A stretch of DNA of 41,865 nt from Bacteroidales bacterium (GTDB lineage: Bacteria > Bacteroidota > Bacteroidia > Bacteroidales > JAGOPY01). Shown in pieces: positions 16,801-40,891 of this stretch; the first letter of the stretch is position 1; each line of letters begins with the position of its first letter. The stretch covers positions 1 through 41,865 of the forward strand of contig JAWOHY010000198.1 in assembly GCA_046484945.1 (NCBI GenBank), written 5' to 3'. The notes under the pieces were generated by a model. The model was given only the letters and a program-made list of their open reading frames with translations, did no database searches and was not told where the DNA came from. The position numbers and the translations under genes are program-made.

Positions 16801-17732
16801 AGACGCCCGTCCTGCTGATCGATCTGGATCCAAACACTCATTCGGGCCCCGTGATCCGTGACATGCTGGATGATATGAATATTATCAATGTCTATAGCAC
16901 ATTCATCCCTGAAGGCATTGACCAATTCCAGTCTCTCTTCATCAGCCTGGGATACCACGGTTCGAACCATGTCCTGACATGGCATGAAGGCAGGGTGCTG
17001 GCAGATTACCTTGATGGCGGGGGCTATATTTACATGGAAGGGAAAAAGACCTGGAAAGACGACCCACAGACCCCTGTGCACAGCCGCTTCAACATTACCC
17101 CTTTGAATGGCGTTACCCTTTGCGATACCCTTTCCGGATCGGAAAATACATTTACCCATGGTATCCGTTTACTGAACAATGCCGAATTTCCGTTCAGTTT
17201 TTATTACCTGGACCCTATCTCACCCGCCTATGCCGTTCTGCACAATGGCTTACAGGGCAGGCCCTGCGCCGTTGCCCATGATGCAGGCTTTTTTAAAACT
17301 ATCGGATCGCTCTTTGAACTTGGTACACTCGGCGATCTCCCCCCTTCTACCACCTCAGAATTGCTGCAGCGATACCTGGATTTCTTCGGCATCTATGTCA
17401 ACCCAACCCGTATCGATGAAATCACCAGAGAAGCAAACGATTTTTCCATCAGCATTTACCCAAATCCTGCGAAACAGATAATTAATGTCAGCTTAGATTT
17501 AACGGCTAACGGCAAACGGCTAACGGCAAACGGCAAACGGCAAACGGCAAACGGGCAAACCTCGCTCATCATCACCGACCTCTTCGGCCGGACTCTGATG
17601 CAAATTCAAAATGTACAAAGTTTCCCCTTCCCGATTAATGTTTCATCGATCCCTGACGGATTACATATTATCCAGTTGATAACCACAGACGGGCAATCGG
17701 CTTCGGCAAAATTTATTAAGACTTCAGATTAG
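13899..17732 (+). CDS. Papain-like (C1) cysteine peptidase, multidomain, T9SS CTD
   Basis: NQEGPSCG (oxyanion Gln and catalytic Cys), HAMTIIGY (His), FINSHG (Asn); DDGDNNILDPGE Ig-like domain; IYPNP CTD. ATG 13899 gives a signal peptide. Confidence 0.82.
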   Translation: MKKLILLPWLFMTIGMISQDMPDAYRLYVEKHPQGPSLNKWDSIRLVNVPEKTLPGNLKNRTLPPIVDNSALPYLRPVFNQEGPSCGQAAMIGYNFTYEINCLRDLSSHDSSNQYPTHFTFNFMNGGNGWYGVSYFHSIEMLKATGCMTVPEYGGMHDDGRRWIDGYDVYHSGMHNRIKDFYSIHTGTTDGILALKNWLYDHMGDQAHGGVASFYANVPWNAKILNDTTPEGGKHVMTAWYPAATHAMTIIGYNDSIRYDYNGDGLYTNHIDLNGDGIIDARDWEIGGVKFINSHGIDAQDSGYCYMMYKCLAETFENGGVWNQAVHILYPYEEFSPLMTYKVTIKHDYREKVKVMAGVSSDTSDLIPRWIMDFPIINYQGGDHYMQGQDTAEYLKYLEFGLDISPLLTHVSPGNPAKFFLIVDENDPYGEGDGEIISFFLIDYTSGMVEVISDEVPLTLLNHNRTTAALVHTPVFDKVAVTTEVLPAFTTDDPYQFQLNATGGTPAYDWTFRHYYRMEQSQTSFPMIMDNQVLPDTSGDSLVAIPLGFEFPFFGKKYDTVYIHIDGHIQFDKTQLPWPYLFDYDLHLRSNRIITPMTHQNFTIFDDEDGAWYETDSISATFRWKLSWSPKPMSTEFNFAVKLWHDGKTEFIYGPATLDGLKWIGGISAGNMLDYFESPLYRSHAISPGHRVAFLPARFPQGLSLSDDGWLEAEMLDETYIYDLSVRVTDKNRVADVKDFQLSSGPLAWFTVHSQGDSLIHYGDSVILDLKLRNHGAQTLGELIMNISSHDDFIILQDSSVVIGDLLPGEEIIISGAFSFLVSVEVPDQHDLSLSAVLLSDSSSWQKALLFKAHAPDLRIRQVIVDDGDNNILDPGETADFLVTLQNMGTAGIHEVIGQLVSLNPELQVLGNPVQSYGTFTKGATISRSFTLYAEESIPCGFPAKLVFTTGSEPGLSFSDTLEIRIGKTPVLLIDLDPNTHSGPVIRDMLDDMNIINVYSTFIPEGIDQFQSLFISLGYHGSNHVLTWHEGRVLADYLDGGGYIYMEGKKTWKDDPQTPVHSRFNITPLNGVTLCDTLSGSENTFTHGIRLLNNAEFPFSFYYLDPISPAYAVLHNGLQGRPCAVAHDAGFFKTIGSLFELGTLGDLPPSTTSELLQRYLDFFGIYVNPTRIDEITREANDFSISIYPNPAKQIINVSLDLTANGKRLTANGKRQTANGQTSLIITDLFGRTLMQIQNVQSFPFPINVSSIPDGLHIIQLITTDGQSASAKFIKTSD
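17500..17555 (+). repeat. Eight (T/A)AACGGC heptamer units inside the C1 peptidase CTD coding region
   Basis: taacggc taacggc aaacggc taacggc aaacggc aaacggc aaacggc aaacggg; translates as LTANGKRLTANGKRQTANG. Confidence 0.95.
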
Positions 17733-17806
17733 CTATTGCTTATATTTCTCAGCGAGAAACTGAATAAAATTGATTGATTCTTTTTAATTTTAAAGAAAAA
17801 ATTAAA

Positions 17807-19657
17807 ATGAAACCAAATTATCTGATTTTCGCGCTTTTCTGCCTGATTGTCACAACAGGCGATCTCATCTCCCAAAAATATGATCCCAGTGCTCGCCAGC
17901 CGCTGGTCTACGTTCAATCCTCCAGCGGGATGGCGAGCCCGGAATGGGAAGGCGGACGTTCTGAGCTTGAATTTGCCGACATGAACCAGGATGGATTCGT
18001 TGATATTATTTCTATCGGTGATCACGGCAGCCCTTATATCAATGCCGGCATCCATGGCATCATGGTTTATTTCGGTGACGGGCAGGGTACCTGGAGCGTG
18101 CAAATGACCGGTAATTTTGGATATGGCGGCATCGCGGCGGGTGATGTGAACAACGACGGCCTCATGGATGTCGGATATGGCATGCACCATAACTATTCCG
18201 GTAATGACCTGGGCGATCAGTTGATTGAGGTGGCCCTGGGCGACGGTTCCGGGGTGAACTGGACCCCCTGGGATGACGGGTTGGCTACCAGCGGCGAAAC
18301 CTATGGCATGTTCGGCACCGATTTTGCCGATGTGGATAACGACGGCGACCTGGATCTCGGTAGCATCTCTTTCGGATGCTGCAACGGCGTCAGGGTTTAC
18401 CTGAACAATATGGACGGCACATGGAGCCCTGCATATAGCATGACAGGCGGTAATTCCGATATGATCTTCGAATTCGGTGATATCAATAATGATGGCTTCA
18501 TGGACTTCATTGCCAGCTATGAATATGGCACCGTATTTTTCGGAGACGGTACCGGTAATTTCACCATCAATGACCAGGGCCTGCCACCTGCAGGCAGTAT
18601 CGGGAGAAACGGCCCTTCCCTTGGAGACATCAATAACAATGGCTTTCTAGACCTGGCTTATACCAGTTATTCCGGGGGCGTGTTCGTTTATGCCTGGAAT
18701 GACAATGACCAGCAATGGGAAGACTGGTCAGGCAATCTCCCTTCTTCAGGAACCCATGAAATGACCCAGCTGGCCGATATGAATATGGATGGTTTCATTG
18801 ATCTGGCCGTTTTCGGCAGGGGAACATTCCAGCTCTACCTCGGCGATGGCACCGGTAACTGGACGCCCGATGCCACCTTTGCCTCCGGTTCACCAGGCTA
18901 TGCAAAGGCCTTCCGGGTCGGGGGAGATGTCGACCACAACGGGTATCCGGATATTGTCTTCCTGGAACAGGTAGGCACATGGATCAGTTACAAAAACCAC
19001 CTGAGGTGTTACCGTGAATCATCAGTCCCCCTAAGCCTTTATATCAAACCGGTCTTTCCCCGCGGGCATGAAGTGCTGTGGCAGGGCGCTGTTCGCTTTA
19101 TCGACTGGATAACAGCTGTGCCGGGAAGCTCCGGCTCGCAGGTTAAATTAGAGTATTCCTCCTCTGGGCCCGAAGGCCCGTGGACCCTCATCGCCGATGA
19201 CCTGCCGGATAACGGACGTTACCAGTGGCTTGTCCCGCCGGTTATATCCGATAATTGCTATATCCGCTATACCGTTACTTCCGGAGATCCTTCCCAAACC
19301 AGTGTCACCCCCGCAGCATTCACGATTACCGATGGCACGGTAGGTGTGAAAGAGAAGTCGAATCAATCATTTTTGCTGCAAGTCTATCCGAATCCTGCCG
19401 GCTCTAAAATTTTGGTCAGCGGTTGGCGGCCTGTCCTGAAGACGAAGTCTGAAGGATCGATGGGCAGCGCAGAGGACCTGCCAGTCGATCTTTGTGTTTT
19501 TGATATGATGGGACGAAAACTGAAATCTATTTCAGCGGTACAACATTTTCCTTTTGAGATTGATGTTTCCGATCTCCGGCAAGGATTTTATCAGCTTCGG
19601 GTGCAGTTTGAAAACGGCCGTTCATCCTCTGTAAAATTCCTGAAAATAAAAGAATAA
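17807..19657 (+). CDS. FG-GAP/VCBS repeat protein with Ig-like domain and T9SS CTD
   Basis: Several (A/G)D(M/V/I)NxDG..D repeats; signal peptide from ATG 17807; VYPNP...GFYQL...KFLK CTD. Confidence 0.85.
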   Translation: MKPNYLIFALFCLIVTTGDLISQKYDPSARQPLVYVQSSSGMASPEWEGGRSELEFADMNQDGFVDIISIGDHGSPYINAGIHGIMVYFGDGQGTWSVQMTGNFGYGGIAAGDVNNDGLMDVGYGMHHNYSGNDLGDQLIEVALGDGSGVNWTPWDDGLATSGETYGMFGTDFADVDNDGDLDLGSISFGCCNGVRVYLNNMDGTWSPAYSMTGGNSDMIFEFGDINNDGFMDFIASYEYGTVFFGDGTGNFTINDQGLPPAGSIGRNGPSLGDINNNGFLDLAYTSYSGGVFVYAWNDNDQQWEDWSGNLPSSGTHEMTQLADMNMDGFIDLAVFGRGTFQLYLGDGTGNWTPDATFASGSPGYAKAFRVGGDVDHNGYPDIVFLEQVGTWISYKNHLRCYRESSVPLSLYIKPVFPRGHEVLWQGAVRFIDWITAVPGSSGSQVKLEYSSSGPEGPWTLIADDLPDNGRYQWLVPPVISDNCYIRYTVTSGDPSQTSVTPAAFTITDGTVGVKEKSNQSFLLQVYPNPAGSKILVSGWRPVLKTKSEGSMGSAEDLPVDLCVFDMMGRKLKSISAVQHFPFEIDVSDLRQGFYQLRVQFENGRSSSVKFLKIKE

Positions 19658-19668
19658 CCATGGTTTCT

Positions 19669-19705
19669 CGCTGATTTTCGCGGATGAAAACGCAGATGAA
19701 CGCAA
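19669..19705 (+). repeat. Degenerate CGCnGAT repeat (10-12 nt spacing) downstream of the FG-GAP gene
   Basis: cgctgat 19669, cgcggat 19679, cgcagat 19691, cgcaaaa 19701. Confidence 0.55.
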
Positions 19706-19729
19706 AAAACAATATACCTGTTTATTTGT

Positions 19730-19737
19730 TATTTTTG
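19730..19737 (+). promoter_or_regulatory. Bacteroidetes -7 promoter element (TATTTTTG)
   Basis: TAnnTTTG about 20 nt before ATG 19758. Confidence 0.55.
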
Positions 19738-19757
19738 CAGCCCCAAGAATTAAAATT

Positions 19758-21755
19758 ATGAGAAACATCATACCTTTCCTGGTTATCATCTTCCTGATCC
19801 CATTATTGATCTCCCAAAAACCGGTCGGAAAAAATGAAAAACCTTATGTCGACGGTGAGATCATGGTGAAGATGCGTTCAGATATTTCACCGGTGCAGCA
19901 GGAAGAAATATTCCAGGCTTTCCTGAACGAATACCAGTATCTCGAAATCGAGCCCATCCGGAAATTATCCAATAGGCTGAATATACACCTGTTACGATTT
20001 AAAACCGGAATATTTAACGATGAAAGGGTCTTGCAGGAAATTAAAAACCACCCGTATGTGGAACTTGCCCAGTTCAACCATTTCATCGAACACCGCCAGC
20101 TGATCCCTTCGGATCAGTATTTCGACCTGCAATGGAACATGCACAATACCGGCCAGACAGGCGGCACTGACGATGCCGACATCGACGGACCGGAGGCATG
20201 GGAAATCGGCACTTCAGGGATCACAGCCACCGGCGACACGATTGTGATCGCCGTTATCGACGATGGATTTGACCTGACCCATGAAGACCTTCGTTTCTGG
20301 AAAAACTATCTGGAGATTCCCGGCAACGGTATCGACGATGACAGCAATGGGTATATTGATGATTACCATGGCTGGAATGTTTATTCCAATTCCGGGAATA
20401 TCATCGAAAGGGACCATGGTACGCATGTCACCGGGATTGCGGCGGCTAAAGGAAATAATGATAAAGGCGTGACAGGGGTGAACTGGAATGTCAGGGTAAT
20501 GCCGGTGGTTGGGTCAGGCACTGTGGAGTCGTACGTAGTGGCAGCTTACGCTTATGTGCTCGAGATGCGTGCCCGGTATAATGAAAGCGATGGCACAAAA
20601 GGGGCTTTCATTGCTTCGACCAATGCATCCTTTGGAGTTAATATGGGGCAGCCGGAAGATTTCCCTATCTGGGGAATGATGTATGATTCGCTGGGTGTGC
20701 TGGGTGTGCTGAGCGCCGGGGCAACGGCAAACGCCAACTGGAACATCGATGAAGTCGGCGATATCCCGACAGCATTCCCGAGCGAATTCCTGATCTCCGT
20801 CACAAATACGGATAATAACGACAACCTGAGTACTTTTGCCGGTTACGGCCTCACGACCATTGATCTGGGGGCGCCGGGCACCCAGGTCTATTCAACCCGA
20901 CAAGGCAATGCATATGGTAATAAAACGGGCACTTCGATGGCATCGCCGCACGTGGCAGGGGCCATTGCATATATGTTCTCCATTGCAGATACGGCTTTTA
21001 TGGAAGCCTATCACAACGATCCGGCCGGTATGGCGCTGGTCATCAAGCAGTACATTCTGGATGGCACCGACCCTCTTCCCACTTTGCTAGGCAAATCGGT
21101 TACCGGTGGCAGGCTTAATATTTACAACGCAGCCATGCGGATGCTCTATCCCGATATCATCTTCAGCCCGATGAGTATCCTGAAGCAGCTGCCTCCGGAT
21201 GAACAGGAAAGTGAGATGCTTTCGTTTACCAACAACACCGGCTCCACAATGAATTACTATATCACTTATCCCGATACACTGGAATGGATCAGCCTTAGCG
21301 GAACCCTTACCGGCACGCTGCCGGCCGGTGGAAATGGCAATATCACCGTTCATTTCGATTCGGAAGGAATTATATCAGACTCACTTTTAACGTACCTGAC
21401 ATTCATCTATGGAATCGACAGCCTGTTCAATGTGCCGGTGCATTTGTTTGTTAATCCGTTTGTGGGAGGCAGGGAATATGAGGGCATGGAGGCATGGGGG
21501 CAAGGAGGCATGGCATTATGGCCGAACCCGGCGAGAGAAGTGTTAAGGTTTAAGTTTTCAGGTTTAAGTTCGGGCAGTAATTATACTCTGAGCATAGTCA
21601 ACTCTTCCGGAACGATCCTGCAGGAAATCACGATTACAGGCGAACAGGCCGGATTACAACTAAATACCGGATCGTACCGTGCCGGAAGTTACTTCGTCAT
21701 CCTTAAACAGGGGAATAAGATGATCGATTCAAAAAAATTCATCATCCTCAAATAA
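19758..21755 (+). CDS. S8 subtilisin-like serine peptidase with T9SS CTD
   Basis: Catalytic triad AVIDDG, DHGTHVTG, GTSMASPHVAG; N-terminal propeptide; LWPNP...GSYFV...KKFIILK. Confidence 0.92.
   Translation: MRNIIPFLVIIFLIPLLISQKPVGKNEKPYVDGEIMVKMRSDISPVQQEEIFQAFLNEYQYLEIEPIRKLSNRLNIHLLRFKTGIFNDERVLQEIKNHPYVELAQFNHFIEHRQLIPSDQYFDLQWNMHNTGQTGGTDDADIDGPEAWEIGTSGITATGDTIVIAVIDDGFDLTHEDLRFWKNYLEIPGNGIDDDSNGYIDDYHGWNVYSNSGNIIERDHGTHVTGIAAAKGNNDKGVTGVNWNVRVMPVVGSGTVESYVVAAYAYVLEMRARYNESDGTKGAFIASTNASFGVNMGQPEDFPIWGMMYDSLGVLGVLSAGATANANWNIDEVGDIPTAFPSEFLISVTNTDNNDNLSTFAGYGLTTIDLGAPGTQVYSTRQGNAYGNKTGTSMASPHVAGAIAYMFSIADTAFMEAYHNDPAGMALVIKQYILDGTDPLPTLLGKSVTGGRLNIYNAAMRMLYPDIIFSPMSILKQLPPDEQESEMLSFTNNTGSTMNYYITYPDTLEWISLSGTLTGTLPAGGNGNITVHFDSEGIISDSLLTYLTFIYGIDSLFNVPVHLFVNPFVGGREYEGMEAWGQGGMALWPNPAREVLRFKFSGLSSGSNYTLSIVNSSGTILQEITITGEQAGLQLNTGSYRAGSYFVILKQGNKMIDSKKFIILK
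21483..21514 (+). repeat. Four GGCATGGA-like octamers in the S8 linker before the CTD
   Basis: ggcatgga ggcatggg ggcaagga ggcatggc; encodes GMEAWGQGGMA. Confidence 0.8.
21539..21574 (+). repeat. GGTTTAA-family arm copy inside the S8 CTD
   Basis: agtgttaaggtttaagttttcaggtttaagttcggg, 32/36 identical to 28614-28649. Confidence 0.85.
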
Positions 21756-21761: not shown

Positions 21762-21810
21762 CCCCAACTTAAACCTTAAACCTCAAACCTTAAACCTAAA
21801 ACTAAACACT
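21762..21810 (-). repeat. GGTTTAA heptamer array between the convergent S8 and thiolase genes
   Basis: Plus strand reads ccccaacttaaaccttaaacctcaaaccttaaacctaaaactaaacact; overlaps the thiolase stop codon. Confidence 0.9.
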
Positions 21811-23065: not shown

Positions 23066-23107
23066 TTGTAATTCGTTGTAATTCGTTGTAATTCGTTGTA
23101 ATTACAA
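23066..23107. repeat. TTGTAATTCG 10-mer x3.8 ending in a short palindrome
   Basis: ttgtaattcg x3 followed by ttgtaattacaa. Confidence 0.9.
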
Positions 23108-25275: not shown

Positions 25276-25338
25276 AGAAGATAGAAGTCAGAAGTCAGTA
25301 GACAGAAGACAAAAAACACGAAACAAAAAACACGAAAC
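25276..25338 (+). repeat. Composite heptamer array: AGAAGTC-type then AAAAAAC/ACGAAAC-type
   Basis: agaagat agaagtc agaagtc agtagac agaagac aaaaaac acgaaac aaaaaac acgaaac. Confidence 0.85.
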
Positions 25339-25370
25339 AAACTTTTTCATCATATTCCAAACTTTATATG

Positions 25371-28205: not shown

Positions 28206-28238
28206 GAATTTTGAATTTTGAATTTTGAATTTTGAATT
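28206..28238 (+). repeat. GAATTTT heptamer x4.7
   Basis: gaatttt x4 plus gaatt, directly after the receptor stop codon. Confidence 0.92.
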
Positions 28239-28246: not shown

Positions 28247-28609
28247 ATGAAAACAGAATTTTCAATAGTTGCTGTAATGATGATGATATCTCTGATGATC
28301 AGCGGTCCTGTGTTTGCACAGGAAAAGAAGAAGAATTACGAAGAAGTGGAAATCAAGACTTCGGCGGTATGTGGCATGTGCGAAGAACGGATCGAAGGCA
28401 ATATCGCCTTTGAAAGGGGAGTCAAAAAAGTGGACCTTGATGATGAGACCAAGGTGGTTACTATCGGTTATGATCCACGTAAAACCGACCCGGACAAGCT
28501 GCGCAAAGCCATCTCAAAACTGGGCTATGATGCCGATGATGTGGAAGCCGACCAGGTAGCACATGATAAGCTGCCGCAATGCTGCCAGAAGGGGAACGAT
28601 CCGCATTGA
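28247..28609 (+). CDS. Secreted heavy-metal-associated (HMA) domain protein
   Basis: Signal peptide; CGMC metal-binding motif; C-terminal LPQCC. Confidence 0.88.
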   Translation: MKTEFSIVAVMMMISLMISGPVFAQEKKKNYEEVEIKTSAVCGMCEERIEGNIAFERGVKKVDLDDETKVVTIGYDPRKTDPDKLRKAISKLGYDADDVEADQVAHDKLPQCCQKGNDPH

Positions 28610-28613: not shown

Positions 28614-28964
28614 AGTGTTGAGGTTTAGGGTTTAAGGTTTAAGTTCGGGAATTTTTTTAACAGAGTGGGTATATTTTTCATTTTTCTGGATTAATAGATA
28701 AAATCCATGAATTATGAAAGAAAGTATTGTTGGTGGTAAAGCATATTTTTATACAATGAGTATTATTCCGCTCTATCAAAAAATGTTACAACTTTCAAGA
28801 CCTTCTCAAAGAGATCGATGAAATCATTAAAATGCTAACAAAAATTGTTAAAACCACAAAATCTCAAGAAATAAAATAATAGCCCGAACCTAAACCTTAA
28901 CCCTTAAACCTCAACACTTTAAAATATTCCCCCACTTAAACCTTAAACCTTAAACCTTAAACCT
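28614..28964. mobile_element. Repeat-flanked four-helix-bundle cassette 1 (defective)
   Basis: 36-bp inverted arms 28614-28649 and 28883-28918 (33/36) made of GGTTTAA units; extra (CTTAAAC)n array about 28935-28964; AT-rich interior carrying a gene remnant. Mobility is inferred, not shown. Confidence 0.65.
28714..28879 (+). pseudogene. Internally deleted four-helix-bundle (23S rRNA IVP family) gene
   Basis: ATG 28714 gives MKESIVGGKAYFYTMSIIPLYQKM (family N-terminus). The +1 frame gives FQDLLKEIDEIIKMLTKIVKTTKSQEIK* (family C-terminus). The central Q..RS..S..AN..E core is missing. Confidence 0.75.
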
Positions 28965-28965
28965 A

Positions 28966-29670
28966 TCATGCAAGCCCTTTTACCCTCGGAATGCCGGGGA
29001 TAAAGTCCTTCAGGTAAAACGGTTCGAAGTAGGCCGTGTTTTCGAATTGCTGCCGGCGAAACTTCTCTTCCGCCAGGGGGATCATGAATTTGGCGGAAGG
29101 GCGGAAATCATCCAGGAAGACAGCATTGGGATGGTTTTGCAGCAGGGGCTTGCATTTTGCCGCACCATCGCCTGCAAAAACGACCGTATGATCCCTGAGT
29201 TCTTCCGTGAAGGATTCTTCCGTAATGATCTCGGCGAGGATTTCCCGGACGGGATGGAGTCCCTGGTCGTAAAGGGCACTGTAAACTTCCATCCGTTTCG
29301 CATCGATCATCGGGCAGAAGAGGGATGGAGTCCCTGTTGGCAGGGACTCCATCCCTGCCATCCCCGCCGCCATAGCCTGTAGCGTACCAATGGCAATCAA
29401 CGGTTTATCCAGCGCATAGCAAATACCTTTGGCGGTGGAAACACCAATCCGCAAACCGGTATAGGACCCCGGCCCCATGCTGACCGATACGGCGTCGAGT
29501 GAGATAAATGGCCAGCCGCTTTCACGCATCATCTCTTCGATAAAAACGGTGACCACTGAGGAATGAATATTTTTCTGACTGCTTTCACGCAGAAATTTGA
29601 GCTGTCCTCTCTCCGACAGGGCTAGCGAGCAGACCTGGGTGGCTGTTTCAATATGTAAGATTCGGGGCAA
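28966..29670 (-). CDS. tsaB: tRNA threonylcarbamoyladenosine biosynthesis protein TsaB
   Basis: ILHIETATQVCS, GPGSYTGLRIG, PMIDAKRMEVY, FEPFYLKDF. Confidence 0.95.
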   Translation of the reverse strand: MPRILHIETATQVCSLALSERGQLKFLRESSQKNIHSSVVTVFIEEMMRESGWPFISLDAVSVSMGPGSYTGLRIGVSTAKGICYALDKPLIAIGTLQAMAAGMAGMESLPTGTPSLFCPMIDAKRMEVYSALYDQGLHPVREILAEIITEESFTEELRDHTVVFAGDGAAKCKPLLQNHPNAVFLDDFRPSAKFMIPLAEEKFRRQQFENTAYFEPFYLKDFIPGIPRVKGLA

Positions 29671-31133: not shown

Positions 31134-33509
31134 ATGAAAATATTTTTTCCTTGTAAACCTTACCTAAAGATAGGTGTCCGGATGTTGGCTATCGTTCTTT
31201 TTCTGATCCCCGTTATCTTCCTTTCCGCTGCAAAAGGCCAATTACGCAGTCCTTCCGGTAATTTTGACGCCATACATTATGAGATCCGCCTCCATGACAT
31301 CAACTTTGAAAGCCACGAATTACTTGCCACCACAACCGTTTGGCTCACACCCCTTTCCGGGCCGGTGAATGAAATCAGCCTCGATCTCATTGACTTGACC
31401 GTCACGGCCGTCTGGGTTGATGCAATGGAAGTTACAGATTTCTATCAAACCGATAGTTTGCTGAACATTCCTTTGACAACAACCCTGATACCCGGCGACA
31501 CGGCAGCGGTAAAAATTGATTACCATGGAATTCCCTTTCACGAAAGCTGGGGCGGATTTCATTTTTCGGGAGAATATGCATTTAACCTCGGCGTGGGGTT
31601 TGTCTCCATTCCCCACAACCTTGGAAAAAGCTGGTTCCCGTGCATCGACAATTTCACCGATCGGGCCACCTATGATGTTTTCTGCACCCTTCCGGAAGGA
31701 AAAATCGCTGTGGCCGGCGGCGTCCTGATGGATGAAACGGTGAATACCAACGGTACCATCACCTACCACTGGCAGCTGAACCAGCCGGTCCCTACCTATC
31801 TGGCATCCATCGCTGCCGGCGACTACACCGTGGTTCGCGATACCTTTGCAGGCATCAACGGCCAGGTGCCGATCGATTACTATGTCAGGCCGCAGGACGC
31901 CGGCAAAGTGGCGGGCACTTTCGTGAACCTGAAAGAGATCCTGGCCATATTCGAGGATTGCATGGGCCACTATTCATGGGACCGCGTGGGCTATACCAGC
32001 ACAGCCATCGGCGCCATGGAACATGCTACCAATATTTTCGTCCCGCACAGCACCATCAACGGCAATACCACTTATGAGTGGTTAATGGCTCATGAGCTTA
32101 CCCACATGTGGATGGGAGACAAGGTCACCTGCTCCTCGGCAGAAGAGATGTGGATCAACGAGGGGTGGGCCACCTTTTTCGGTTCTTACTATGTAATACC
32201 GCTTTACGGCAACGAGTCGGCCTTCCGGCAGGATATGCGGGGAAAGCACGGCAGCGTGCTGCAATTTTGCCATACCCCCTCCGGCGACGGTTCCTATTTC
32301 CCCCTCAACCAGATCCCGCAGGAATATACCTATGGCATGTCGGCATACGATCGCGGGGCCACCGTCGTGCAGGCCCTGCGATTCTACCTGGGCGACAGCC
32401 TGTTCTTCGAAACGCTGAAAGCCTTTATCGGTGAATTTGCCTTCCAGCCCGCATCATCCTATGACATGCGCGACTTCATGACATCCTATACCGGGATTGA
32501 CATGGCCGGCTTTTTCGACAATTTCGTGCTGAATTCCGGGACGCCGCATTATTCGATCGACTCATTCAACGTTTCCCGGGCAGAAAATGAATATGAAGTG
32601 GCCGTCCACATGAAACAGAAACGCAAAGGGCCGGCATTCACCGGCAATGGGAATATTGTCGAATTACTCTTCATGGATGATGACTGGAACCACTTTGCCG
32701 ATACGGTCCATTTCAGCGGTTCAGTGGGAGTTTCAGCGAAAATTGTCCCTTTTCATCCATCTGTAATCCTCGTTGATCCCGAAGAAGAGATGTTCGATGC
32801 CACTACCGATAATTATAAAACCATCAAAAACACCGGGGAGTATACATTCGAAAACACGTTTTGCAACATTGAAGTCGGACAGGTCATCGATTCCGTTTTC
32901 CTCCAGGTCACGCACAACTGGGCGCCCCCCGACAGCCTGAAGAATGCTGTTCCGGGCTTAAGGCTTTCCGATTACCGCTACTGGCGGATCGATGGTATCG
33001 TGCCGGAGGGATTTCAGGCTACGGGAAAATTTTTCTATTCAAGGAACAATTATCTCGACAATACCCTGATTGTCACCTCCGCCGATACACTGGTCATCCT
33101 TTACCGGCCAGGGACGGCAGACGACTGGCAGGAGATTCCCTTTGAACGCCTGGGCCCATGGAATATCGGGAACATCATCGTCCCTGAATTGAAAACAGGA
33201 GAATATACCCTCGCCGTGAAAGAAATGTCAGTCGGCGGCCTGGAAAACCCTTCGCCGGGAAAAAACCAACTGAAGATTTACCCAAATCCTTCATCCGATA
33301 CTTTTGAAATATCAGTTGAAATCGAAAGGGCTGGGGAGATCAGGATTGTCAATGAACAGGGACTTCTTGTGAAAAGTTTCACAATTACTTCTGAATTAGA
33401 ACACCGGACCTGGAACCCGGAAGGACTTGCGGCCGGGGTTTATTTTGTTTCATTATGGAAGGAAAACCTTTCCGGTCCATTGATACAGAAGGCGGTTTAT
33501 GTGAAATAA
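31134..33509 (+). CDS. M1 family zinc aminopeptidase with T9SS CTD
   Basis: GAMEH, HELTH-x18-E (INEG), AYDRGA Tyr, IYPNP...GVYFV CTD. Start uncertain (31128, 31134 or 31182). Confidence 0.9.
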   Translation: MKIFFPCKPYLKIGVRMLAIVLFLIPVIFLSAAKGQLRSPSGNFDAIHYEIRLHDINFESHELLATTTVWLTPLSGPVNEISLDLIDLTVTAVWVDAMEVTDFYQTDSLLNIPLTTTLIPGDTAAVKIDYHGIPFHESWGGFHFSGEYAFNLGVGFVSIPHNLGKSWFPCIDNFTDRATYDVFCTLPEGKIAVAGGVLMDETVNTNGTITYHWQLNQPVPTYLASIAAGDYTVVRDTFAGINGQVPIDYYVRPQDAGKVAGTFVNLKEILAIFEDCMGHYSWDRVGYTSTAIGAMEHATNIFVPHSTINGNTTYEWLMAHELTHMWMGDKVTCSSAEEMWINEGWATFFGSYYVIPLYGNESAFRQDMRGKHGSVLQFCHTPSGDGSYFPLNQIPQEYTYGMSAYDRGATVVQALRFYLGDSLFFETLKAFIGEFAFQPASSYDMRDFMTSYTGIDMAGFFDNFVLNSGTPHYSIDSFNVSRAENEYEVAVHMKQKRKGPAFTGNGNIVELLFMDDDWNHFADTVHFSGSVGVSAKIVPFHPSVILVDPEEEMFDATTDNYKTIKNTGEYTFENTFCNIEVGQVIDSVFLQVTHNWAPPDSLKNAVPGLRLSDYRYWRIDGIVPEGFQATGKFFYSRNNYLDNTLIVTSADTLVILYRPGTADDWQEIPFERLGPWNIGNIIVPELKTGEYTLAVKEMSVGGLENPSPGKNQLKIYPNPSSDTFEISVEIERAGEIRIVNEQGLLVKSFTITSELEHRTWNPEGLAAGVYFVSLWKENLSGPLIQKAVYVK

Positions 33510-33574
33510 AAAATCGTAGTCCCACTTTAGTGGCGGTACAATTTTTTTATTGCCTATTTTTGCTGCATTCTTTT

Positions 33575-34837
33575 ATGGCATCAAAGCGCTTCATCAAAAA
33601 CCTGGTCAAGTACCTCATTATTCCCGTCGGGTTTGCCATCGGGATGACGATGGCCATTGTCTGGTCATCCGGGAATATCGTGCATGCCCCCCGACTCAAT
33701 CCGAAATACGCTTTCCCGGTCGATAGCCTCTTTATCGATCTCGACAGGATCGCCATGGATAAAAAAGGGTACATGATCGACAGTGTCTTCACTGCGCTGC
33801 AATTGCGGGCGGGGTTCAATGGTACGGTGCTGTATTCCGAAAAGGGAAGGTTGGTATTTAAAAAGGCTTACGGCTACGAAGATTTTAAAACCAGGAAAAG
33901 GCTTACCACCCAATCGGCATTTCAGCTGGCTTCGGTATCGAAAATGTTCACAGCCGCTGCCATTATGATCCTCCGGGAGGAAGGGTTGCTGAACTATGAC
34001 GATTCACTTGAGCTTTATATCCCTGGCTTACCCTATCCGGGAGTCACGATACGGCACCTGCTGATCCACCGTTCCGGAATACCTGATTATATGTATTTTT
34101 CAGATGAACACTGGGGCCAGAAAAGGCCGATCAGTAACGATGACATGATTTGGATCATGCAGAAAAAAAAACCGCCGCGTTTCTTTTCAGCCGGAAACGG
34201 CTTCGATTATTGCAACTCCAATTATGCCCTGCTGGCATCGGTGGTGGAACATATCACAGGGAAAGCGTTTGGGGATTTTCTCCGGGAAAGGATCTTCGAT
34301 CCGCTAGACATGCATGATTCTTTTCTCTACCGCCTGGAACCCGGTGAGTCGGTCCCCAGGGCAGTGCCGGTGGGTGTCCCCGGGCATCGCACCTACCGCG
34401 GCAGGACCATCGTGGAACAAAATTTCTATCAAAACGGTGTAGTGGGCGATAAAGGGATCTATTCAACCGTTGAAGATCTTTTCAAATTCGATCAGGCGCT
34501 TTACAATGGTCTCCTGGTAAGTGAAGAAACCCTGATGGAGGCTTTTACCCCCGGCAGCCCCAGAAGGTCGAGGCACAGGGATAACTATGGTTTTGGCTGG
34601 CGCCTGAAGGCGGGACGGTCTAACACAATATACCATTATGGCTGGTGGAAAGGATTCCGCACCTATTTCATCCGCGATATGGAACAGGAAAAAACGATCA
34701 TCGTATTGACAAACACAACCCGTCTGCTTTCTTCTGGCAGACTATATGGGATCCTCGACAATCAACAGTTCGAACTCGGTCCCATTTCCGCCATCGATCC
34801 CAAAGGCAGCAGGAAGTCGTTAGTCGTCAGTCGTTAG
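33575..34837 (+). CDS. Serine hydrolase, beta-lactamase class C/PBP-like
   Basis: SVSK (SxxK), YCN, LLIHRSG, YHYGWW; TM helix after ATG 33575; promoter-like TATTTTTG at 33555-33562. Confidence 0.88.
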   Translation: MASKRFIKNLVKYLIIPVGFAIGMTMAIVWSSGNIVHAPRLNPKYAFPVDSLFIDLDRIAMDKKGYMIDSVFTALQLRAGFNGTVLYSEKGRLVFKKAYGYEDFKTRKRLTTQSAFQLASVSKMFTAAAIMILREEGLLNYDDSLELYIPGLPYPGVTIRHLLIHRSGIPDYMYFSDEHWGQKRPISNDDMIWIMQKKKPPRFFSAGNGFDYCNSNYALLASVVEHITGKAFGDFLRERIFDPLDMHDSFLYRLEPGESVPRAVPVGVPGHRTYRGRTIVEQNFYQNGVVGDKGIYSTVEDLFKFDQALYNGLLVSEETLMEAFTPGSPRRSRHRDNYGFGWRLKAGRSNTIYHYGWWKGFRTYFIRDMEQEKTIIVLTNTTRLLSSGRLYGILDNQQFELGPISAIDPKGSRKSLVVSR

Positions 34838-34877
34838 TCATCAAGAAACAAAAAACAAGAAACAAGAAACAAGAAAC
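34815..34877 (+). repeat. Composite heptamer array: AGTCGTT-type x4 then AAGAAAC-type x5
   Basis: agtcgtt agtcgtc agtcgtt agtcatc aagaaac aaaaaac aagaaac aagaaac aagaaac. Confidence 0.9.
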
Positions 34878-37120: not shown

Positions 37121-37237
37121 GTACAACCTGCCCATATGAATCGCGGGTTATACTGCGCGAATAAAGTCTGATTCATAATTTTGGTTTTTGGTTTATTGGG
37201 GAGTGCGGTCCGTCATCTGGCGGACCGTACTTTTTTT
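37121..37237 (+). ncRNA. Candidate small RNA of about 115 nt
   Basis: TACTTTTG promoter at 37109-37116; strong terminator 37203-37237; pgi has its own promoter-like TATTTTCG at 37241. Confidence 0.5.
37203..37237 (+). terminator. Intrinsic terminator
   Basis: Stem gtgcggtccgtc / ggcggaccgtac with a 4-nt loop, followed by T7. Confidence 0.8.
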
Positions 37238-37273
37238 GCCTATTTTCGCAGCGAAATTCAAAATTGTGATCCC

Positions 37274-38578
37274 ATGAACAATATCAAGATCGACCTCGAG
37301 CATATTTTCGGTTTTATACCGGAAGAAAGCCTGAATTCATTGCAGCCTGAGATCGACCATCATTATGCATCATTATGGCAAAAAACCGGGGCGGGAAATG
37401 ATTTCCTCGGCTGGATGGACCTCCCGTCGGTTTTTGATAAGGACCTTTTCCGGAGGATGGAGGAAGACGCCGCCCGGTTGCGTGAAAATTCGGAAATTTT
37501 CGTCGTCATCGGCATCGGGGGATCTTACCTGGGCGCCAGGGCGGTGATCGAGGCGCTGGGCCACCAGTTCTATGATCTTATGGAAAACCGGAAATACCCC
37601 TATATCATTTATGCGGGGCATAACCTGGGCGAAGATTACCATGCTGAACTGCTTGAACTTCTCGACAAAAAAGACTATTCCCTGGCGGTGATCTCCAAAT
37701 CGGGAACCACTACCGAACCGGCCATCGCCTTTCGTATTCTCAAAAACCACCTGGAAAAGAAGTACGGTAAAGCGGAAGCCCGGAAACGGATCATCGCGGT
37801 CACCGACAAAGCCAGAGGGGCGTTGAAAACCCTTTCCGACAGCGAAGGTTACCCCACTTATGTTGTGCCCGATGATGTCGGCGGAAGATATTCCGTTCTC
37901 ACGCCCGTCGGGCTCTTACCCATCGCCATGGCCGGCTTCGACATCAGGAAACTGGTCGAAGGGGCTGCTGAAATGGAGTCTTATTCCCGCCAGGCAAAAA
38001 CCATCGCCGATAACCCCGTCATGGCTTACGCCGCAGCCAGGAATGCCCTTTACCGCAAGGGTAAAACTATTGAAATACTGGTGAATTACCTGCCCAACCT
38101 GTATTATCTGACCGAATGGTGGAAACAATTATACGGCGAAAGCGAAGGAAAACAGGGCAAGGGCATTTTCCCGGCAGGGGCCGGCTTCACAACCGACCTC
38201 CACTCCATGGGGCAGTATATCCAGGATGGCATGCGAAATATTTTCGAGACGGTACTCTCGGTGGAAAATAGCAGCAAAACTTTAGTCATTCCGCGAATCA
38301 AAGATGATTCCGACAGTTTGAATTACCTGGCCGGAAAACGCATCGGCTATGTCAACCGGATGGCTGAGAAAGGGACGCTGATGGCGCATGTCGACGGCGG
38401 CGTGCCGAACATCCGGGTATCGGTGCCGGAGATCAATGAATACAACCTGGGGCAGCTCATTTATTTCTTCGAACTGGCCTGTGGACTGAGCGGTTACATG
38501 CTGGGCGTCAACCCGTTCGATCAACCGGGCGTGGAAGCGTATAAGAAGAATATGTTTGCGTTGCTGGGGAAAAAGTGA
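37274..38578 (+). CDS. pgi: Glucose-6-phosphate isomerase
   Basis: GIGGSYLG, SKSGTTTE, VGGRYSV, GESEGK, DLHSMGQ, NPFDQPGVEAYK. ATG 37274 preferred because TTG 37181 lies upstream of the terminator. Confidence 0.96.
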   Translation: MNNIKIDLEHIFGFIPEESLNSLQPEIDHHYASLWQKTGAGNDFLGWMDLPSVFDKDLFRRMEEDAARLRENSEIFVVIGIGGSYLGARAVIEALGHQFYDLMENRKYPYIIYAGHNLGEDYHAELLELLDKKDYSLAVISKSGTTTEPAIAFRILKNHLEKKYGKAEARKRIIAVTDKARGALKTLSDSEGYPTYVVPDDVGGRYSVLTPVGLLPIAMAGFDIRKLVEGAAEMESYSRQAKTIADNPVMAYAAARNALYRKGKTIEILVNYLPNLYYLTEWWKQLYGESEGKQGKGIFPAGAGFTTDLHSMGQYIQDGMRNIFETVLSVENSSKTLVIPRIKDDSDSLNYLAGKRIGYVNRMAEKGTLMAHVDGGVPNIRVSVPEINEYNLGQLIYFFELACGLSGYMLGVNPFDQPGVEAYKKNMFALLGKK

Positions 38579-38581
38579 ACA

Positions 38582-38623
38582 GTCGTTGGCCGTTGGCCGT
38601 TTGCCGTTTGCCGTTTACCGTTA
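38582..38623 (-). repeat. Six AAACGGC-family heptamers (GCCGTTT on the plus strand)
   Basis: gtcgttg gccgttg gccgttt gccgttt gccgttt accgtta. Confidence 0.9.
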
Positions 38624-38632
38624 TAAATAAAA

Positions 38633-39202
38633 ATGCATAATGATATGTTTCTTAACCTGGTAAAATCAAGGCAGAGTGTCCGCAAATATTCGGACAGGCC
38701 GGTGGAAGCGGAGAAACTGCAGCGTTGCCTGGAGGCGGCGCGGCTGGCGCCATCGGCGAGCAACAGCCAGCCTTGGTCGTTCGTGGTGGTGAACGAACCG
38801 GAACTGGTGAAGGCTGTGGCGAAGGAAACCTATGGCCCACTGGCCACATTCAACACCTTTGTTCCCCAGGCGCCGGTAATCATTGCGATCGTTATCGAAA
38901 AAATGAAAACCGTCACACAGGTCGGCGCCTACCTGAAAGACCGGGAATTCGCCCTGATCGATATCGGCATCGCCGCTGAGCACTTCTGCCTGCAGGCCGC
39001 CGAAGAAGGCCTCGGTACCTGCATGCTCGGCTGGTTCAACGAAAAACCGATAAAAAAACTGCTGAACATCCCGGAGAAAAAACGGATCGGCCTGCTCATC
39101 ACCCTGGGCTACCCACCGGAAGAATATACAGTGAGAGAGAAAAATAGAAAAGGGTTTAATGAAATAGTGACATTCAATACCTACCAAAAACCTGAGATAT
39201 AA
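38633..39202 (+). CDS. Nitroreductase family protein
   Basis: RQSVRKY, APSASNSQPW, DIGIAAEHFCLQAAEEGLGTC. Confidence 0.93.
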   Translation: MHNDMFLNLVKSRQSVRKYSDRPVEAEKLQRCLEAARLAPSASNSQPWSFVVVNEPELVKAVAKETYGPLATFNTFVPQAPVIIAIVIEKMKTVTQVGAYLKDREFALIDIGIAAEHFCLQAAEEGLGTCMLGWFNEKPIKKLLNIPEKKRIGLLITLGYPPEEYTVREKNRKGFNEIVTFNTYQKPEI

Positions 39203-39206
39203 TCAC

Positions 39207-39269
39207 CAAAAACAAAAAACACGAAACAACAAACACGAAACAATAAACACGAAACAAGAAACCAGATAC
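39207..39269 (+). repeat. ACGAAAC/AAnAAAC alternating heptamer array
   Basis: caaaaac aaaaaac acgaaac aacaaac acgaaac aataaac acgaaac aagaaac cagatac. Confidence 0.88.
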
Positions 39270-39293
39270 CCTATCTTTGCAAAAATTTTCTCC

Positions 39294-40226
39294 ATGCAAA
39301 AACCAATTAAAAAGATCGATTACGGCGAACTCCTGGAAGTCCTCAGGCACTACGACACCGAATCGATCTTCGACAAGGTCAACGTGATCCCCGATAGCGA
39401 AGACCTGCACGAAGCGATCTCGGAATTGATCAACCTCCGCTCCTTTGCCCGGCGATCAGTGCTGGGTATCGACATCTACCGCTATGGGATGTACAAACAC
39501 CTTGAGCAGGTGCTCATCCCGCCCCTATATAAAATCCTCTTTGAAAAAGCCATCCGGCTCTGCCTCGAAAACAACCAGTTCATCTTCCAGCGATATACAA
39601 AGGAAAAGATCGAAAATTCCTTCATCAGCACCGGCGACGGGGGATTTGTGATCTTCGACACACCATTGCACTCCCTGTTCTTCGCCATCAACTTCGAAAT
39701 GGTCGTCAGGGCTTATAACTCCTACCATCTTTTCCCGAAATTGAGGAATATCATTGGCAGTATCAGTTTGCGCTATGCCATCAGCTATGACACCGTCTTC
39801 CATTTTGACGATAATTTTTACGGCAGCGCCATCATCAACAATGCCCGCATCCTCGATAAAGACACCCTCAACCGCTGCCTCATCGACCAGCAAACATACG
39901 ACTGGTTCCTCATCAGCATCGACGGGCTGGAAAACCTGCAGATCCTTTCCATTGAGGAGATCGCCAATATATTCGATTTCCTTGATTATGACCGCAGTTT
40001 GCTTGACAAGGGCGAAAATGAAATTCTCGATAACAACACTTCCCGCCGGACAGGGATCATCAACTCAGACATTCTGAAAGTCGGCCAGATTCAATCGAAA
40101 CAAACACTCATTAACATCTACAACCTGCACCTGCAAGTCACAGCCCGCATCTATTCCGACCGGAAAGTGGAGAACAAGCGGACGATTACCGTAAGCCTGG
40201 GGAACCTTAATACGAGTGGGATTTAG
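39294..40226 (+). CDS. Hypothetical protein with class III nucleotidyl-cyclase-like motifs
   Basis: VLGIDIYRYG, STGDGGFVIF, LRYAISYD, YGSAIINNARI; own promoter TATCTTTG at 39272-39279. Confidence 0.6.
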   Translation: MQKPIKKIDYGELLEVLRHYDTESIFDKVNVIPDSEDLHEAISELINLRSFARRSVLGIDIYRYGMYKHLEQVLIPPLYKILFEKAIRLCLENNQFIFQRYTKEKIENSFISTGDGGFVIFDTPLHSLFFAINFEMVVRAYNSYHLFPKLRNIIGSISLRYAISYDTVFHFDDNFYGSAIINNARILDKDTLNRCLIDQQTYDWFLISIDGLENLQILSIEEIANIFDFLDYDRSLLDKGENEILDNNTSRRTGIINSDILKVGQIQSKQTLINIYNLHLQVTARIYSDRKVENKRTITVSLGNLNTSGI

Positions 40227-40233
40227 TTGTTGA

Positions 40234-40891
40234 AATGTTGTATGTTGTATGTTGTATGTATTATTTAATAAGGATTTGATAATAAGACAATTATCATAAA
40301 CTTAATACATATCACATAATACATACCACATACAACATCTTTCAGTCGTCTTTACGCCGCATCACTATTTCTTCTGGCGGTGTTTCTTGTTGCCATAAAA
40401 ATAGCGATCAACTCCTTGCATTCCACTAATTGGTTTTGCAGAACTACTGGGTCTTTACACAATTTCGCTTCCTCAACAACCTCAAGATTAACCTCAGTTT
40501 CTTTTAGCTCTTTCACAACAAGTCCGATCTTATGAATAAAATCTTTTCTTGTTTCTGCCATTTGTGCTTCGCCATAATTTAAAGCTGCTGAAGTTGAGGA
40601 CCTTACCATTTGCATGTAAAGATGCCTGGATGCAAAAACGGGTTTAAGAATTTGGTCAATAGAAACTATCCTGGCAGAAAACTGCACAAGCCTTTTTTGT
40701 AATTGCGTCTTCATACTATTCTTTCTCTGTTAATCAGGAAAGAAGCTGAAATATACCCGGTGATTTTGAAAAAAAATTAGGACTGTGGTATGCATGATGT
40801 GATATGTAGTATGTGATATGTAGTATGTGGTATTTATTAAGTATTTTAAATCCTTATAAAATACTACATACCACATACTACATACAACATT
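40234..40891. mobile_element. Repeat-flanked four-helix-bundle cassette 2 (intact gene)
   Basis: Nested inverted arms of TATGTnG heptamers: outer 40234-40277/40848-40891 (40/44) and inner 40300-40338/40804-40842 (34/39). Mobility is inferred, not shown. Confidence 0.7.
40352..40714 (-). CDS. Four-helix-bundle protein (23S rRNA intervening-sequence protein/Avd-like family)
   Basis: 120 aa; QMVRSSTSAALNYGEAQ...SRKDF-like TRKDFIHK...KELKET family signature. Confidence 0.92.
   Translation of the reverse strand: MKTQLQKRLVQFSARIVSIDQILKPVFASRHLYMQMVRSSTSAALNYGEAQMAETRKDFIHKIGLVVKELKETEVNLEVVEEAKLCKDPVVLQNQLVECKELIAIFMATRNTARRNSDAA

Follow-up and report, generated by a model that had tools for sequence, protein, structure and literature searches.

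Cassettes with inverted heptamer arms around four-helix-bundle (IVP) genes in a Bacteroidales genome: probable selfish hairpin elements outside rRNA and a likely source of dispersed tandem arrays

What a gene family known from ribosomal insertions does between ordinary protein-coding genes, and what ties it to the short tandem arrays scattered around it, are the questions raised by contig JAWOHY010000198.1 of the Bacteroidales assembly GCA_046484945.1 (41,865 nt, the window). The family in question is PF05635/TIGR02436 (IVP genes below), a very common family of unknown function, previously met solely in rRNA inserts and through its kinship with Avd. The window is contig C29 of a 3.08-Mb genome in 273 contigs (G000); G004 is its closest relative, and the other G numbers denote kin genomes. 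The analysis makes it probable that the window contains one intact and one internally deleted copy of a selfish hairpin cassette that resembles the intervening sequences (IVSs) of rRNA but lies outside it, that the decay products of such cassettes seed heptamer arrays, and that the stem acts on read-through RNA while the protein binds periodic cores of the arms.

The intact copy, cassette 2, has the following parts (window coordinates here and below):

40227-40902: cassette 2, between the convergent genes 39294-40226 (+) and 40903-41826 (-)
40227-40338: low-coordinate hairpin of heptamer arrays, downstream of the gene
40352-40714, - strand: intact IVP gene, 120 aa, four-helix-bundle family (PF05635 and TIGR02436 profiles)
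40715-40778, - strand: leader of the IVP gene, with a promoter-like GGGTATATTT as the reverse complement of 40749-40758
40779-40890: high-coordinate hairpin of heptamer arrays, upstream of the gene

The product of the open reading frame (ORF) 40352-40714 matched PF05635 with an E-value of 1.5e-9 (38.4 bits, cut-off 33.8) and TIGR02436 with 61 bits (cut-off 24), and by sequence it matched PDB 2rld (E 2e-9), an entry of 5 chains. Both flanks of the gene are hairpins in themselves. The low-coordinate hairpin consists of an outer arm of 3.6 ATGTTGT copies (40235-40259), a 47-nt loop and an inner arm of 4.6 ACATACC copies (40307-40338), whereby its heptads keep a constant ATGT/ACAT core and vary in the remaining three bases. 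The high-coordinate one is composed of an inner arm of about seven ATGTGAT/ATGTAGT units (40779-40833, within which Tandem Repeats Finder, TRF, called 4.4 copies of TATGTAG at 40803-40833), a 27-nt loop and an outer arm of 4.3 ATACTAC copies (40861-40890). The RNA fold of the whole cassette reached -201.7 kcal/mol (z -10.2) with the outer arms paired.

The second copy is much reduced:

28614-28922: cassette 1, between the convergent HMA gene 28247-28609 (+) and TsaB-like gene 28966-29670 (-)
28614-28649, + strand: left arm, degenerate heptads AGTGTTG AGGTTTA GGGTTTA AGGTTTA AGTTCGG G; outer terminus AGTGTTGAGG
28650-28713, + strand: leader; contains the inner junction TTCGGGAATTTTTTT and, at 28667-28676, a promoter-like GGGTATATTT
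28714-28879, + strand: IVP pseudogene, a copy of the C137 IVP gene minus 193 internal bases, frame broken
28883-28922, + strand: right arm, reverse complement of the left arm, ending in CCTCAACACTTTAA
28923-28965, + strand: extra half-element beside the cassette, ATTCCCCCA followed by 4.3 copies of CTTAAAC (28935-28964)

In the left arm, TRF called 3.3 copies of AGGTTTA, and the arm pairs with 28883-28918 in an RNA fold of -89 kcal/mol (z -6.1); the longest ORF of the gene remnant is 35 aa. Thus, terminal inverted repeats that make a long stem around the ORF are present in both cassettes, as judged from the paired arms in the folds, and the description of two cassettes with an intact or deleted IVP gene between inverted heptamer arms and convergent neighbours, given by the initial annotation, was correct at both places. 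The leader motif GGGTATATTT, a putative -7 promoter element of Bacteroidota, was recognised by eye upstream of the IVP genes of cassette 2 and of the cassettes at C229 and C137 of the same genome, as well as upstream of the three PDDEXK_3 genes described below.

Comparison of cassette 1 with the intact cassette at C137 of G000 showed 94-95% identity on both sides of the 193-nt internal deletion, arms included. Since orthologous genes of G000 and G004 are only ~85-88% identical, the copy is younger than the split of these two genomes. The cassette 1 position of G004 is a precise empty site, with 3 bases between the two stop codons versus a 355-nt insert in G000; the half-element 28923-28965 is likewise missing there. 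The terminus AGTGTTGAGG recurs at C137 of G000, and G004 and G008 have it at their orthologues of that site.

The same architecture was found throughout the genome. G000 has 20 PF05635 matches, 18 of them above the cut-off, and inverted arms lie on both sides of 17 of the 20 genes; the two sides are reverse-complementary, and the unit is 7, 8, 10 or 11 nt long, varying by locus. Of the remaining three, two are cut off by a contig end and have an array on the side that was assembled, whereas one (C64) is without an array. When tandem arrays were called genome-wide with TRF and set against a crude longest-ORF gene model (under which G000 is ~92% coding), they were present in 27 of the 34 spacers adjoining IVP genes versus 335 of the 2229 other spacers (odds ratio 21.8, p 2.5e-16), while arrays on both sides accompanied only 8 of 288 control ORFs of 90-160 aa outside the family. 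The relatives from the same genus, family and order had 0-22 IVP matches, with at least one in 19 of the 21 genomes, and arrays stood on both sides of the gene at 18 of their 19 single-gene loci (locus L017, with two genes, was left aside), L012 of G007 having none. The C64 (34286-34594) and L012 copies are homologues whose N-terminus is longer (154-173 aa) and which lack inverted arms at their flanks. They cluster on the protein tree, and this type may represent a domesticated copy.

Eighty loci from named public genomes of many phyla were fetched with an alignment of three proteins of one subfamily, and the sample is therefore skewed to that subfamily. An array within 350 nt was found at 64 of the 72 loci with at least 300 nt on both sides, strictly inverted arms of the same unit at 28 and an inverted repeat detectable by BLAST at 48. 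For the 62 loci with long flanks, the density of period-7/8 arrays was 3.19 per kb within 250 nt of the gene versus 0.23 per kb beyond. In the Cyanobacteriota, the family was present in 35 of the 81 sampled genomes, with arrays at 29 of 30 loci and strictly inverted ones at 16 of 30. The architecture is general across phyla, and the enrichment of inverted arms around family genes, which the initial annotation had put forward for checking, holds in G000, in its relatives and in the cross-phylum sample. A second cargo was found in arms of the same general kind: all three PDDEXK_3/GxxExxY genes (PD-(D/E)XK superfamily) of G000 lie within inverted arms of repeated 8-10-nt motifs and have the GGGTATATTT leader motif, and among such genes in a Bacteroidota sample 20 of 27 were flanked by inverted repeats and 16 of 27 by arrays. 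The three cassettes in G000 are:

C171:1527-2022
C184:5613-6265
C52:~1250-1800

Cassettes are gained and lost between close species, flip and amplify in tandem, as can be followed at two orthologous sites. The junction that carries cassette 2 is filled as follows:

G000: IVP cassette
G005 (L026, C4:213138-217205): three IVP cassettes in tandem (529-nt spacing), oriented opposite to the adjacent gene
G004: bare ATGT-core array, IVP part absent
G008 and G007: hairpins of other families
G009 and G006: 9-10-mer arrays
G003: nothing

The tandem cassettes of G005, with IVP copies at 73% aa identity, are separated by ATGTGGT/TACCACA hairpins. The site occupied in G000 by the C137 cassette shows an equally mixed picture:

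G007: empty
G004: 15-nt left terminus
G008: gene-less remnant
G003: hairpin of the GAATTTT family
G005: 1.1 kb of other sequence, including a Y1_Tnp match

It is thus empty or differently filled in all five relatives, while homologues of the C137 cassette occupy other loci in G008, G007 and G003; the C57 site, too, is differently filled in every one of these relatives. Presence/absence polymorphism, which the initial annotation had made a test of its proposal, is therefore evident from cassette 1 and from the IVP part of cassette 2, both absent in G004, and from the C137 site. Cassettes also decay: internal deletion leaves hairpins without a gene, isolated arms and short footprints. Between G000 and G004, arrays shifted in copy number, appeared or disappeared and, in one case, underwent a base change throughout the array (GAATTTT versus GAGTTTT); we infer that replication slippage accounts for the change in copy number and the homogenisation. 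A GC-rich unit of ~100 nt with CCAACGACTAAAGCCGTTGG-type palindromes adjoins the C137 cassette (L130:2197-2366); it is repeated at more than 20 places in G004 with 77-92% identity and constitutes a separate family similar to repetitive extragenic palindromes (REPs).

When the gene reaches a new locus or another phylum, its arms go with it. For the subfamily sampled, GTGA was the 4-mer that recurred most often at 7-nt spacing upstream of the gene (107 occurrences), and TCAC was the corresponding one downstream (117), whereby chains of at least three GTGA at period 7 or 8 preceded the gene at 27 of the 80 loci and TCAC chains at 3. Within those 50 of the 107 arrays (229 heptads) that have GTGA in their consensus, the mismatch to the array's own consensus was 0.017, 0.004, 0.096 and 0.017 at the G, T, G and A, respectively, versus 0.188, 0.100 and 0.223 at the spacer positions, so that core positions are 5-50 times less variable than spacers within arrays; the spacer triplets of these 50 arrays were of 24 kinds. 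A quick protein tree of low resolution, with 49 of 110 inner branches open, showed clustering of the arm cores: GTGA required 24 changes versus 33.2 in shuffles, and none of 500 shuffles was as low, which is the outcome of the comparison of protein phylogeny with repeat unit that had been suggested at the outset. GTGA arms extend from Bacteroidota to Nitrospirota, Acidobacteriota and Pseudomonadota. In comparison, five protein subfamilies with different units coexist in G000, and orthologous pairs of G000 and G007 keep their units (GGTTTAA, AATTTTG and GAGTTCT). Near-identical IVP proteins with the arm unit CGTGAAA in both were found in L082 (Chitinophagaceae) and L104 (Nitrospirota), which suggests either a recent transfer of the whole cassette between phyla or a binning error. 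One IVP arm of G000 reads CCCCAAT, presumably the sequence of STRR1, one of the short tandemly repeated repetitive sequences (STRRs).

How far the cassettes account for the bare arrays was considered on the level of the whole G000 genome. Among arrays with a TRF score of at least 50, period 7 accounted for 357, far ahead of period 6 (6 arrays), period 9 (8 arrays) and period 10 (14 arrays); periods 8 (91 arrays) and 11 (37 arrays) were also elevated. The 1684 non-redundant arrays of period 5-12 yielded 87 inverted pairs of the same unit within 1.5 kb. Fifty of these pairs enclose loops of 2-147 nt (gene-less hairpins), 6 enclose 179-293 nt (cassette 1 among them) and 17 enclose 390-548 nt (IVP cassettes), while the gaps of the other 14 are longer and mostly represent ordinary genes between common arrays by chance. 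At least eight AGTTCAA hairpins share 32-nt termini with the IVP cassette at C229, and their loops differ. Among the orphan arrays of period 7 or 8, the unit of 219 of 578 is identical to that of an IVP arm in this genome, whereas the units of such arms account for only 12 of the 1172 canonical heptamer classes. Sharing of units beyond chance, whose absence would have counted against the initial annotation, is thus real. The cassette inner junction ([CG]GGG within 8 nt) is retained on the inner side in 20 of the 28 GGTTTAA arrays and on the outer side in none of the 28 (background 3.4%). An inner junction common to all array families was also considered and rejected, as it is clear only in this one.

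The density of heptamer arrays showed a trend to follow the IVP copy number across six genomes of the order:

G018: 0 IVP matches, 0 heptamer arrays per 100 kb (200 kb sampled)
G013: 3 IVP matches, 0 arrays per 100 kb (100 kb sampled)
G014: 1 weak IVP match, 2.5 arrays per 100 kb (160 kb sampled)
G019: 6 IVP matches, 6.0 arrays per 100 kb (100 kb sampled)
G000: 20 IVP matches, 15.9 arrays per 100 kb (whole genome)
G007: 15 IVP matches, 22.5 arrays per 100 kb (200 kb sampled)

With the threshold lowered to a score of at least 40, G000 has 477 heptamer arrays, 335 of them intergenic, 100 within crude ORFs and 42 at contig edges; the latter indicates that heptamer arrays break short-read assemblies. 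Array lengths peak at 25, 32 and 39 nt (7n+4). The 32-nt peak comprises 63 of the 477 arrays, mostly from two families, so it may reflect copied arms of fixed length rather than a molecular ruler. A clear strand bias of solo arrays relative to transcription was not seen in G000. Most members of the GAATTTT family are separate units of 32 nt (AATT...AATT), which directly abut start or stop codons at ~50 loci of this genome, and arrays of different families are often juxtaposed within one spacer.

The way in which such a cassette might work can be outlined as follows. A full cassette comprises an IVP gene of ~120 aa with its own leader, within inverted arms of tandem 7-nt (sometimes 8-, 10- or 11-nt) units, the unit in the best-sampled subfamily being a lineage-specific core of ~4 nt plus free bases. 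A transcript crossing the cassette would fold into a long stem, as in the IVSs of 23S rRNA. RNase III would cleave this stem, and/or the stem would block read-through from one convergent gene into the other, so that a cassette at a gene end would do no harm or even be of use. The IVP, probably a pentamer, might bind the periodic cores on single-stranded RNA or DNA, which would explain why the cores are conserved and the spacer bases are not. Binding of IVP to the arms and cutting by RNase III are both what we infer for the cassettes outside rRNA. Inversion of the arms also means that the GTGA-type arm comes first in a transcript from whichever side, which is a matter of geometry rather than an additional observation.

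A wider proposal is more tentative, and we regard it as possible rather than probable. It holds that heptad-armed cassettes form a pan-bacterial selfish class without a canonical transposase, whose pentamer recognises, on a single strand, a lineage-specific 4-nt core at 7-nt intervals (32 nt, the most common array length in G000, covers five cores). The IVSs of rRNA would then be the special case of cassettes that landed in rRNA hairpin loops, decay of arms together with slippage would be the main source of heptanucleotide arrays (STRRs and long simple sequence repeats, SSRs), and the PD-(D/E)XK (GxxExxY) genes would reside in sister cassettes.

Several observations weigh against a selfish cassette that seeds the arrays. 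Only 111 of the 477 heptamer arrays belong to an inverted pair, and several of the most frequent orphan units, AAACAAG (31), AACATTC (19) and AAACACG (17), have no exact match in any resident IVP arm. Seven array families other than GGTTTAA keep the inner junction in just 0-6 cases each (GAATTTT in 6 of 53, the six others in 0-2). Since most arrays are solo and those of seven families largely lack a junction derived from a cassette, many of them may arise or spread independently; for many bare arrays, the 32-nt GAATTTT units among them, decay is not a sufficient explanation. The idea of a full element with derivatives, as initially annotated, is supported by the checks that it named and is borne out directly by cassette 1, a deletion copy of the C137 cassette, and by the GGTTTAA arrays with a junction on one side; most solo arrays of other families are without a cassette flank. 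The arms enclose the IVP leader as well; a transcript started there may thus include just one of them, and a stem would then require read-through RNA. No enzyme that could move the cassettes was found: the reverse transcriptase domain RVT_1 had no matches in G000, G007 and G005 (one above the cut-off in G008 and one split match in G004), and Y1_Tnp is tied to other repeats. No target-site duplication was seen at the cassette 1 site, the one clean pair of filled (G000) and empty (G004) sites; the TTAA beside the right end, present in two cassette copies, was considered as such and rejected, as it fits better as part of the terminal inverted repeat. The restriction of the core comparison to arrays with GTGA in the consensus and the low resolution of the protein tree count on the same side, as do the small size of the dose series, made up of kin genomes, and its exception G013, which has IVP matches and no heptamer array in the stretch sampled.

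Two explanations give the arrays or hairpins to the host. It is unlikely that the arrays are slippage-born, STRR-like microsatellites favoured at 7 nt, and that IVP genes enter such pre-existing arrays or hairpins by homologous recombination, with the arms serving as host landing pads. The changes in copy number, turnover and homogenisation seen between G000 and G004 would fit, as would the gene-less ATGT-core array of G004 at the cassette 2 site and the solo state of most arrays. Heptanucleotide repeats are, moreover, the commonest long-SSR class in most genomes (Mrazek et al. 2007, as cited in the accessible text of PMC4679880). According to the same text, TAACTGA repeats occur in Beggiatoaceae, in Cyanobacteria and in five Bacteroidetes; it also describes intergenic tandem heptamers that often abut start or stop codons and are patchily distributed over Cyanobacteria, Bacteroidetes and others. 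The arrays described here resemble heptanucleotide long SSRs and STRRs in their tandem 7-nt units, mainly intergenic position and over-representation relative to other periods, whereas the literature on STRRs, TAACTGA repeats and long SSRs, as far as it was searched, contains no tie to a gene family or to inverted arms. What speaks against landing pads is that the cores follow the protein subfamily rather than the host (GTGA across phyla, five units side by side in G000), that any array is missing from the cassette 1 site of G004, G000 having gained arms and gene together, that cores so much less variable than spacers are not predicted by slippage alone, and that no heptamer arrays occur in the 200 kb of G018, where IVP matches are absent. 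We also consider it improbable that the hairpins are mainly bidirectional terminators or RNA-end stabilisers of the host, with IVP as a domesticated RNA-binding factor and turnover as a swap of working hairpins. Their position agrees with such a role: the median distance of heptamer arrays from the upstream stop codon is 14 nt, array density falls from 2.4 per kb in convergent through 1.7 in tandem to 0.57 in divergent spacers, and a cassette, hairpin or array, with differing sequences, occupies the cassette 2 junction in 7 of the 8 species in which both flanking genes were found; the folds are also very stable. Yet fully empty sites exist in close relatives (cassette 2 in G003, C137 in G007 and cassette 1 in G004), cassette 1 has decayed to a pseudogene, copies multiply within a genome and cross phyla, and arrays are found at start codons and inside a coding region as well. 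A terminator function is, however, compatible with a selfish origin rather than opposed to it.

The other two explanations supply an enzyme. The initial annotation had compared the arrangement with REPs and their RAYT transposases, and the likeness is genuine as far as arrangement goes: REP/BIME elements with RAYT are short palindromic gene-end elements without target duplications, with a gene unit flanked by repeats and many gene-less copies. It is nonetheless very unlikely that a Y1 HUH transposase encoded elsewhere moves hairpins and cassettes in trans as folded single strands. PF01797 (Y1_Tnp) was found in all five genomes of the genus that were searched (3-10 per genome, 4 in G000), and one match lies within the G005 sequence at the C137 site. 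However, the two genes of G000 that match Y1_Tnp best have tandem GC-rich repeats at their flanks, with units of 51 nt (C63:21074-21323) and 29 nt (C215:83-163), the two weaker ones have no array nearby, and heptamer arrays adjoin none of the four. Y1_Tnp was, therefore, rejected as the leading mobiliser. The enclosed gene is, besides, a 120-aa four-helix bundle rather than an HUH enzyme, the tandem-heptad arms differ between cassette lineages whereas RAYT recognises one REP family, and the architecture is found in many phyla, putatively regardless of Y1_Tnp. Least credible of all is that the cassettes are relics or parts of diversity-generating retroelements (DGRs), with IVP acting as Avd together with a reverse transcriptase. 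Avd is a four-helix-bundle pentamer that binds nucleic acid and works on structured RNA. The equivalog model for Avd gave weak matches to two of five IVP proteins, at 18.9-20 bits versus a cut-off of 80, and IVP and Avd have homologous folds according to the accessible part of PMC10053308. The absence of RVT_1 matches from three genomes, mentioned above, speaks against this option, and no pair of template and variable repeats was noticed, a formal search for one not having been made.

The closest known relatives of the cassettes, which we continue to regard as probable selfish elements, are the IVSs of 23S rRNA. The accessible text of PMC4990558 describes a 428-nt IVS of Coxiella with a 28-bp terminal stem and an S23p ORF of the PF05635 family, upstream of which lie two or three tandem heptameric repeats whose number varies by strain; RNase III cleaves this IVS at the first heptameric repeat. 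The same text relays a proposal by earlier authors of a transposon or mobile-element origin of IVSs and cites a Xanthomonas homologue of the family as a homopentameric toroid. As in the 23S rRNA IVSs of Coxiella, Leptospira, Salmonella and others, the PF05635 gene of the cassettes sits in the loop of a stem made by terminal inverted repeats. Unlike them, the cassettes lie between protein-coding genes in ~20 copies per genome, have long arms with lineage-specific cores and are accompanied by gene-less derivatives and orphan arrays. No Rfam match of any kind, rRNA included, was obtained at the gathering score in 17000-41865 of the window or in any of 12 loci from other phyla, and being outside rRNA the cassettes lack the defining feature of an IVS. 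Miniature inverted-repeat transposable elements (MITEs) share with them terminal inverted repeats, defined ends (e.g., the 32-nt AGTTCAA termini) and many short non-coding next to few gene-bearing copies; they differ in that the genes enclosed here are only IVP or PDDEXK_3 and no transposase, that target-site duplication is lacking and that the gene-less loops of the AGTTCAA family are not simple deletion derivatives of one master. Integron cassettes have a single 3' attC and form an array next to intI, whereas those described here are solitary with two symmetric arms; intI was not searched for. The anti-phage models of PADLOC matched none of the five IVP proteins submitted.

In a literature search that left most subscription journals and supplements outside, no general account of heptad-armed IVP cassettes beyond rRNA or of a link between arrays and IVP was found. 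In its general form the system thus seems undescribed, as had been supposed, but not wholly so: it is the non-rRNA form of the 23S IVS, and heptameric repeats have already been noted in one such IVS (PMC4990558, accessible text). If the proposed reading is true, the PF05635/TIGR02436 family would gain a defined genetic context of periodic, lineage-specific arms that points to binding of a periodic 4-nt core, and the IVSs of rRNA would be tied to a larger population of elements outside rRNA. It would also suggest where the heptanucleotide tandem repeats of Bacteroidota, Cyanobacteriota and further phyla come from, and define a class of gene-end hairpins with fast turnover that could shape transcription termination and mRNA ends. 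A large CRISPR-association screen lists '23S rRNA IVP' among the proteins linked to CRISPR modules or arrays, according to the accessible part of PMC10910872; repeat arms around IVP genes possibly contribute to that signal.

The window itself carries, besides the two cassettes, the following orphan arrays:

17501-17560, + strand: 8.4 copies of AACGGCA (60 nt), in frame in the Por_Secre_tail domain (C-terminal sorting domain of the type IX secretion system, T9SS) of the 1290-aa ORF 13860-17732
21768-21802, + strand: solo arm of the GGTTTAA family, five copies of CTTAAAC, between convergent genes, with the inner junction TTGGGGA on one side
23066-23103, + strand: 3.8 copies of TTGTAATTCG, a unit identical to the arms of the C175 IVP cassette
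25276-25341, + strand: composite of drifting heptads AGAAGTC ... AGAAGAC ... AAAAAAC ACGAAAC (TRF: AGAAGAC and AAACACG)
28206-28238, + strand: 4.7 copies of GAATTTT, in the 42-nt spacer between a TonB-dependent receptor gene and the HMA gene
34815-34877, + strand: 3.6 copies of AGTCGTT, which run into the end of ORF 33455-34837, then 5.1 copies of CAAGAAA; neighbouring genes convergent
38584-38622, + strand: 5.6 copies of CGTTTGC, the reverse complement of the 17501 unit, 6 nt past the stop codon of the PGI gene
39210-39266, + strand: 8.1 copies of AAACAAG/AAACACG, between a nitroreductase gene and a 310-aa gene

All gene-less arrays listed by the initial annotation were recovered with TRF; the one at 17501-17560 is, however, not gene-less, being read in frame, and it adds a peptide repeat of the TANGKR type to the 1290-aa protein. 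Several of these arrays differ in G004, which has two copies fewer at 21768-21802, lacks 23066-23103 altogether, is 59 bases shorter at 25276-25341, where only GAGAAGAT remains, and reads GAGTTTT in each copy at 28206-28238.

The gene content of the window looks Bacteroidota-like, with T9SS sorting domains and TonB-dependent receptors that have a CarboxypepD_reg domain. Its first part (1-17732) is taken up by five large successive genes on the + strand (~600-1320 aa); T9SS sorting domains were present in all three of them that were scanned, and one gene has a peptidase C25 and another FG-GAP repeats. Five relatives were encountered on viral contigs, three of them with heptamer arrays on both sides, too few to judge carriage by phages. 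On one of these contigs (L227, 55 kb), the IVP gene is enclosed by GAAGGAA/TCCTTCT arms, and a second, gene-less hairpin of the same unit is located 700 nt away.

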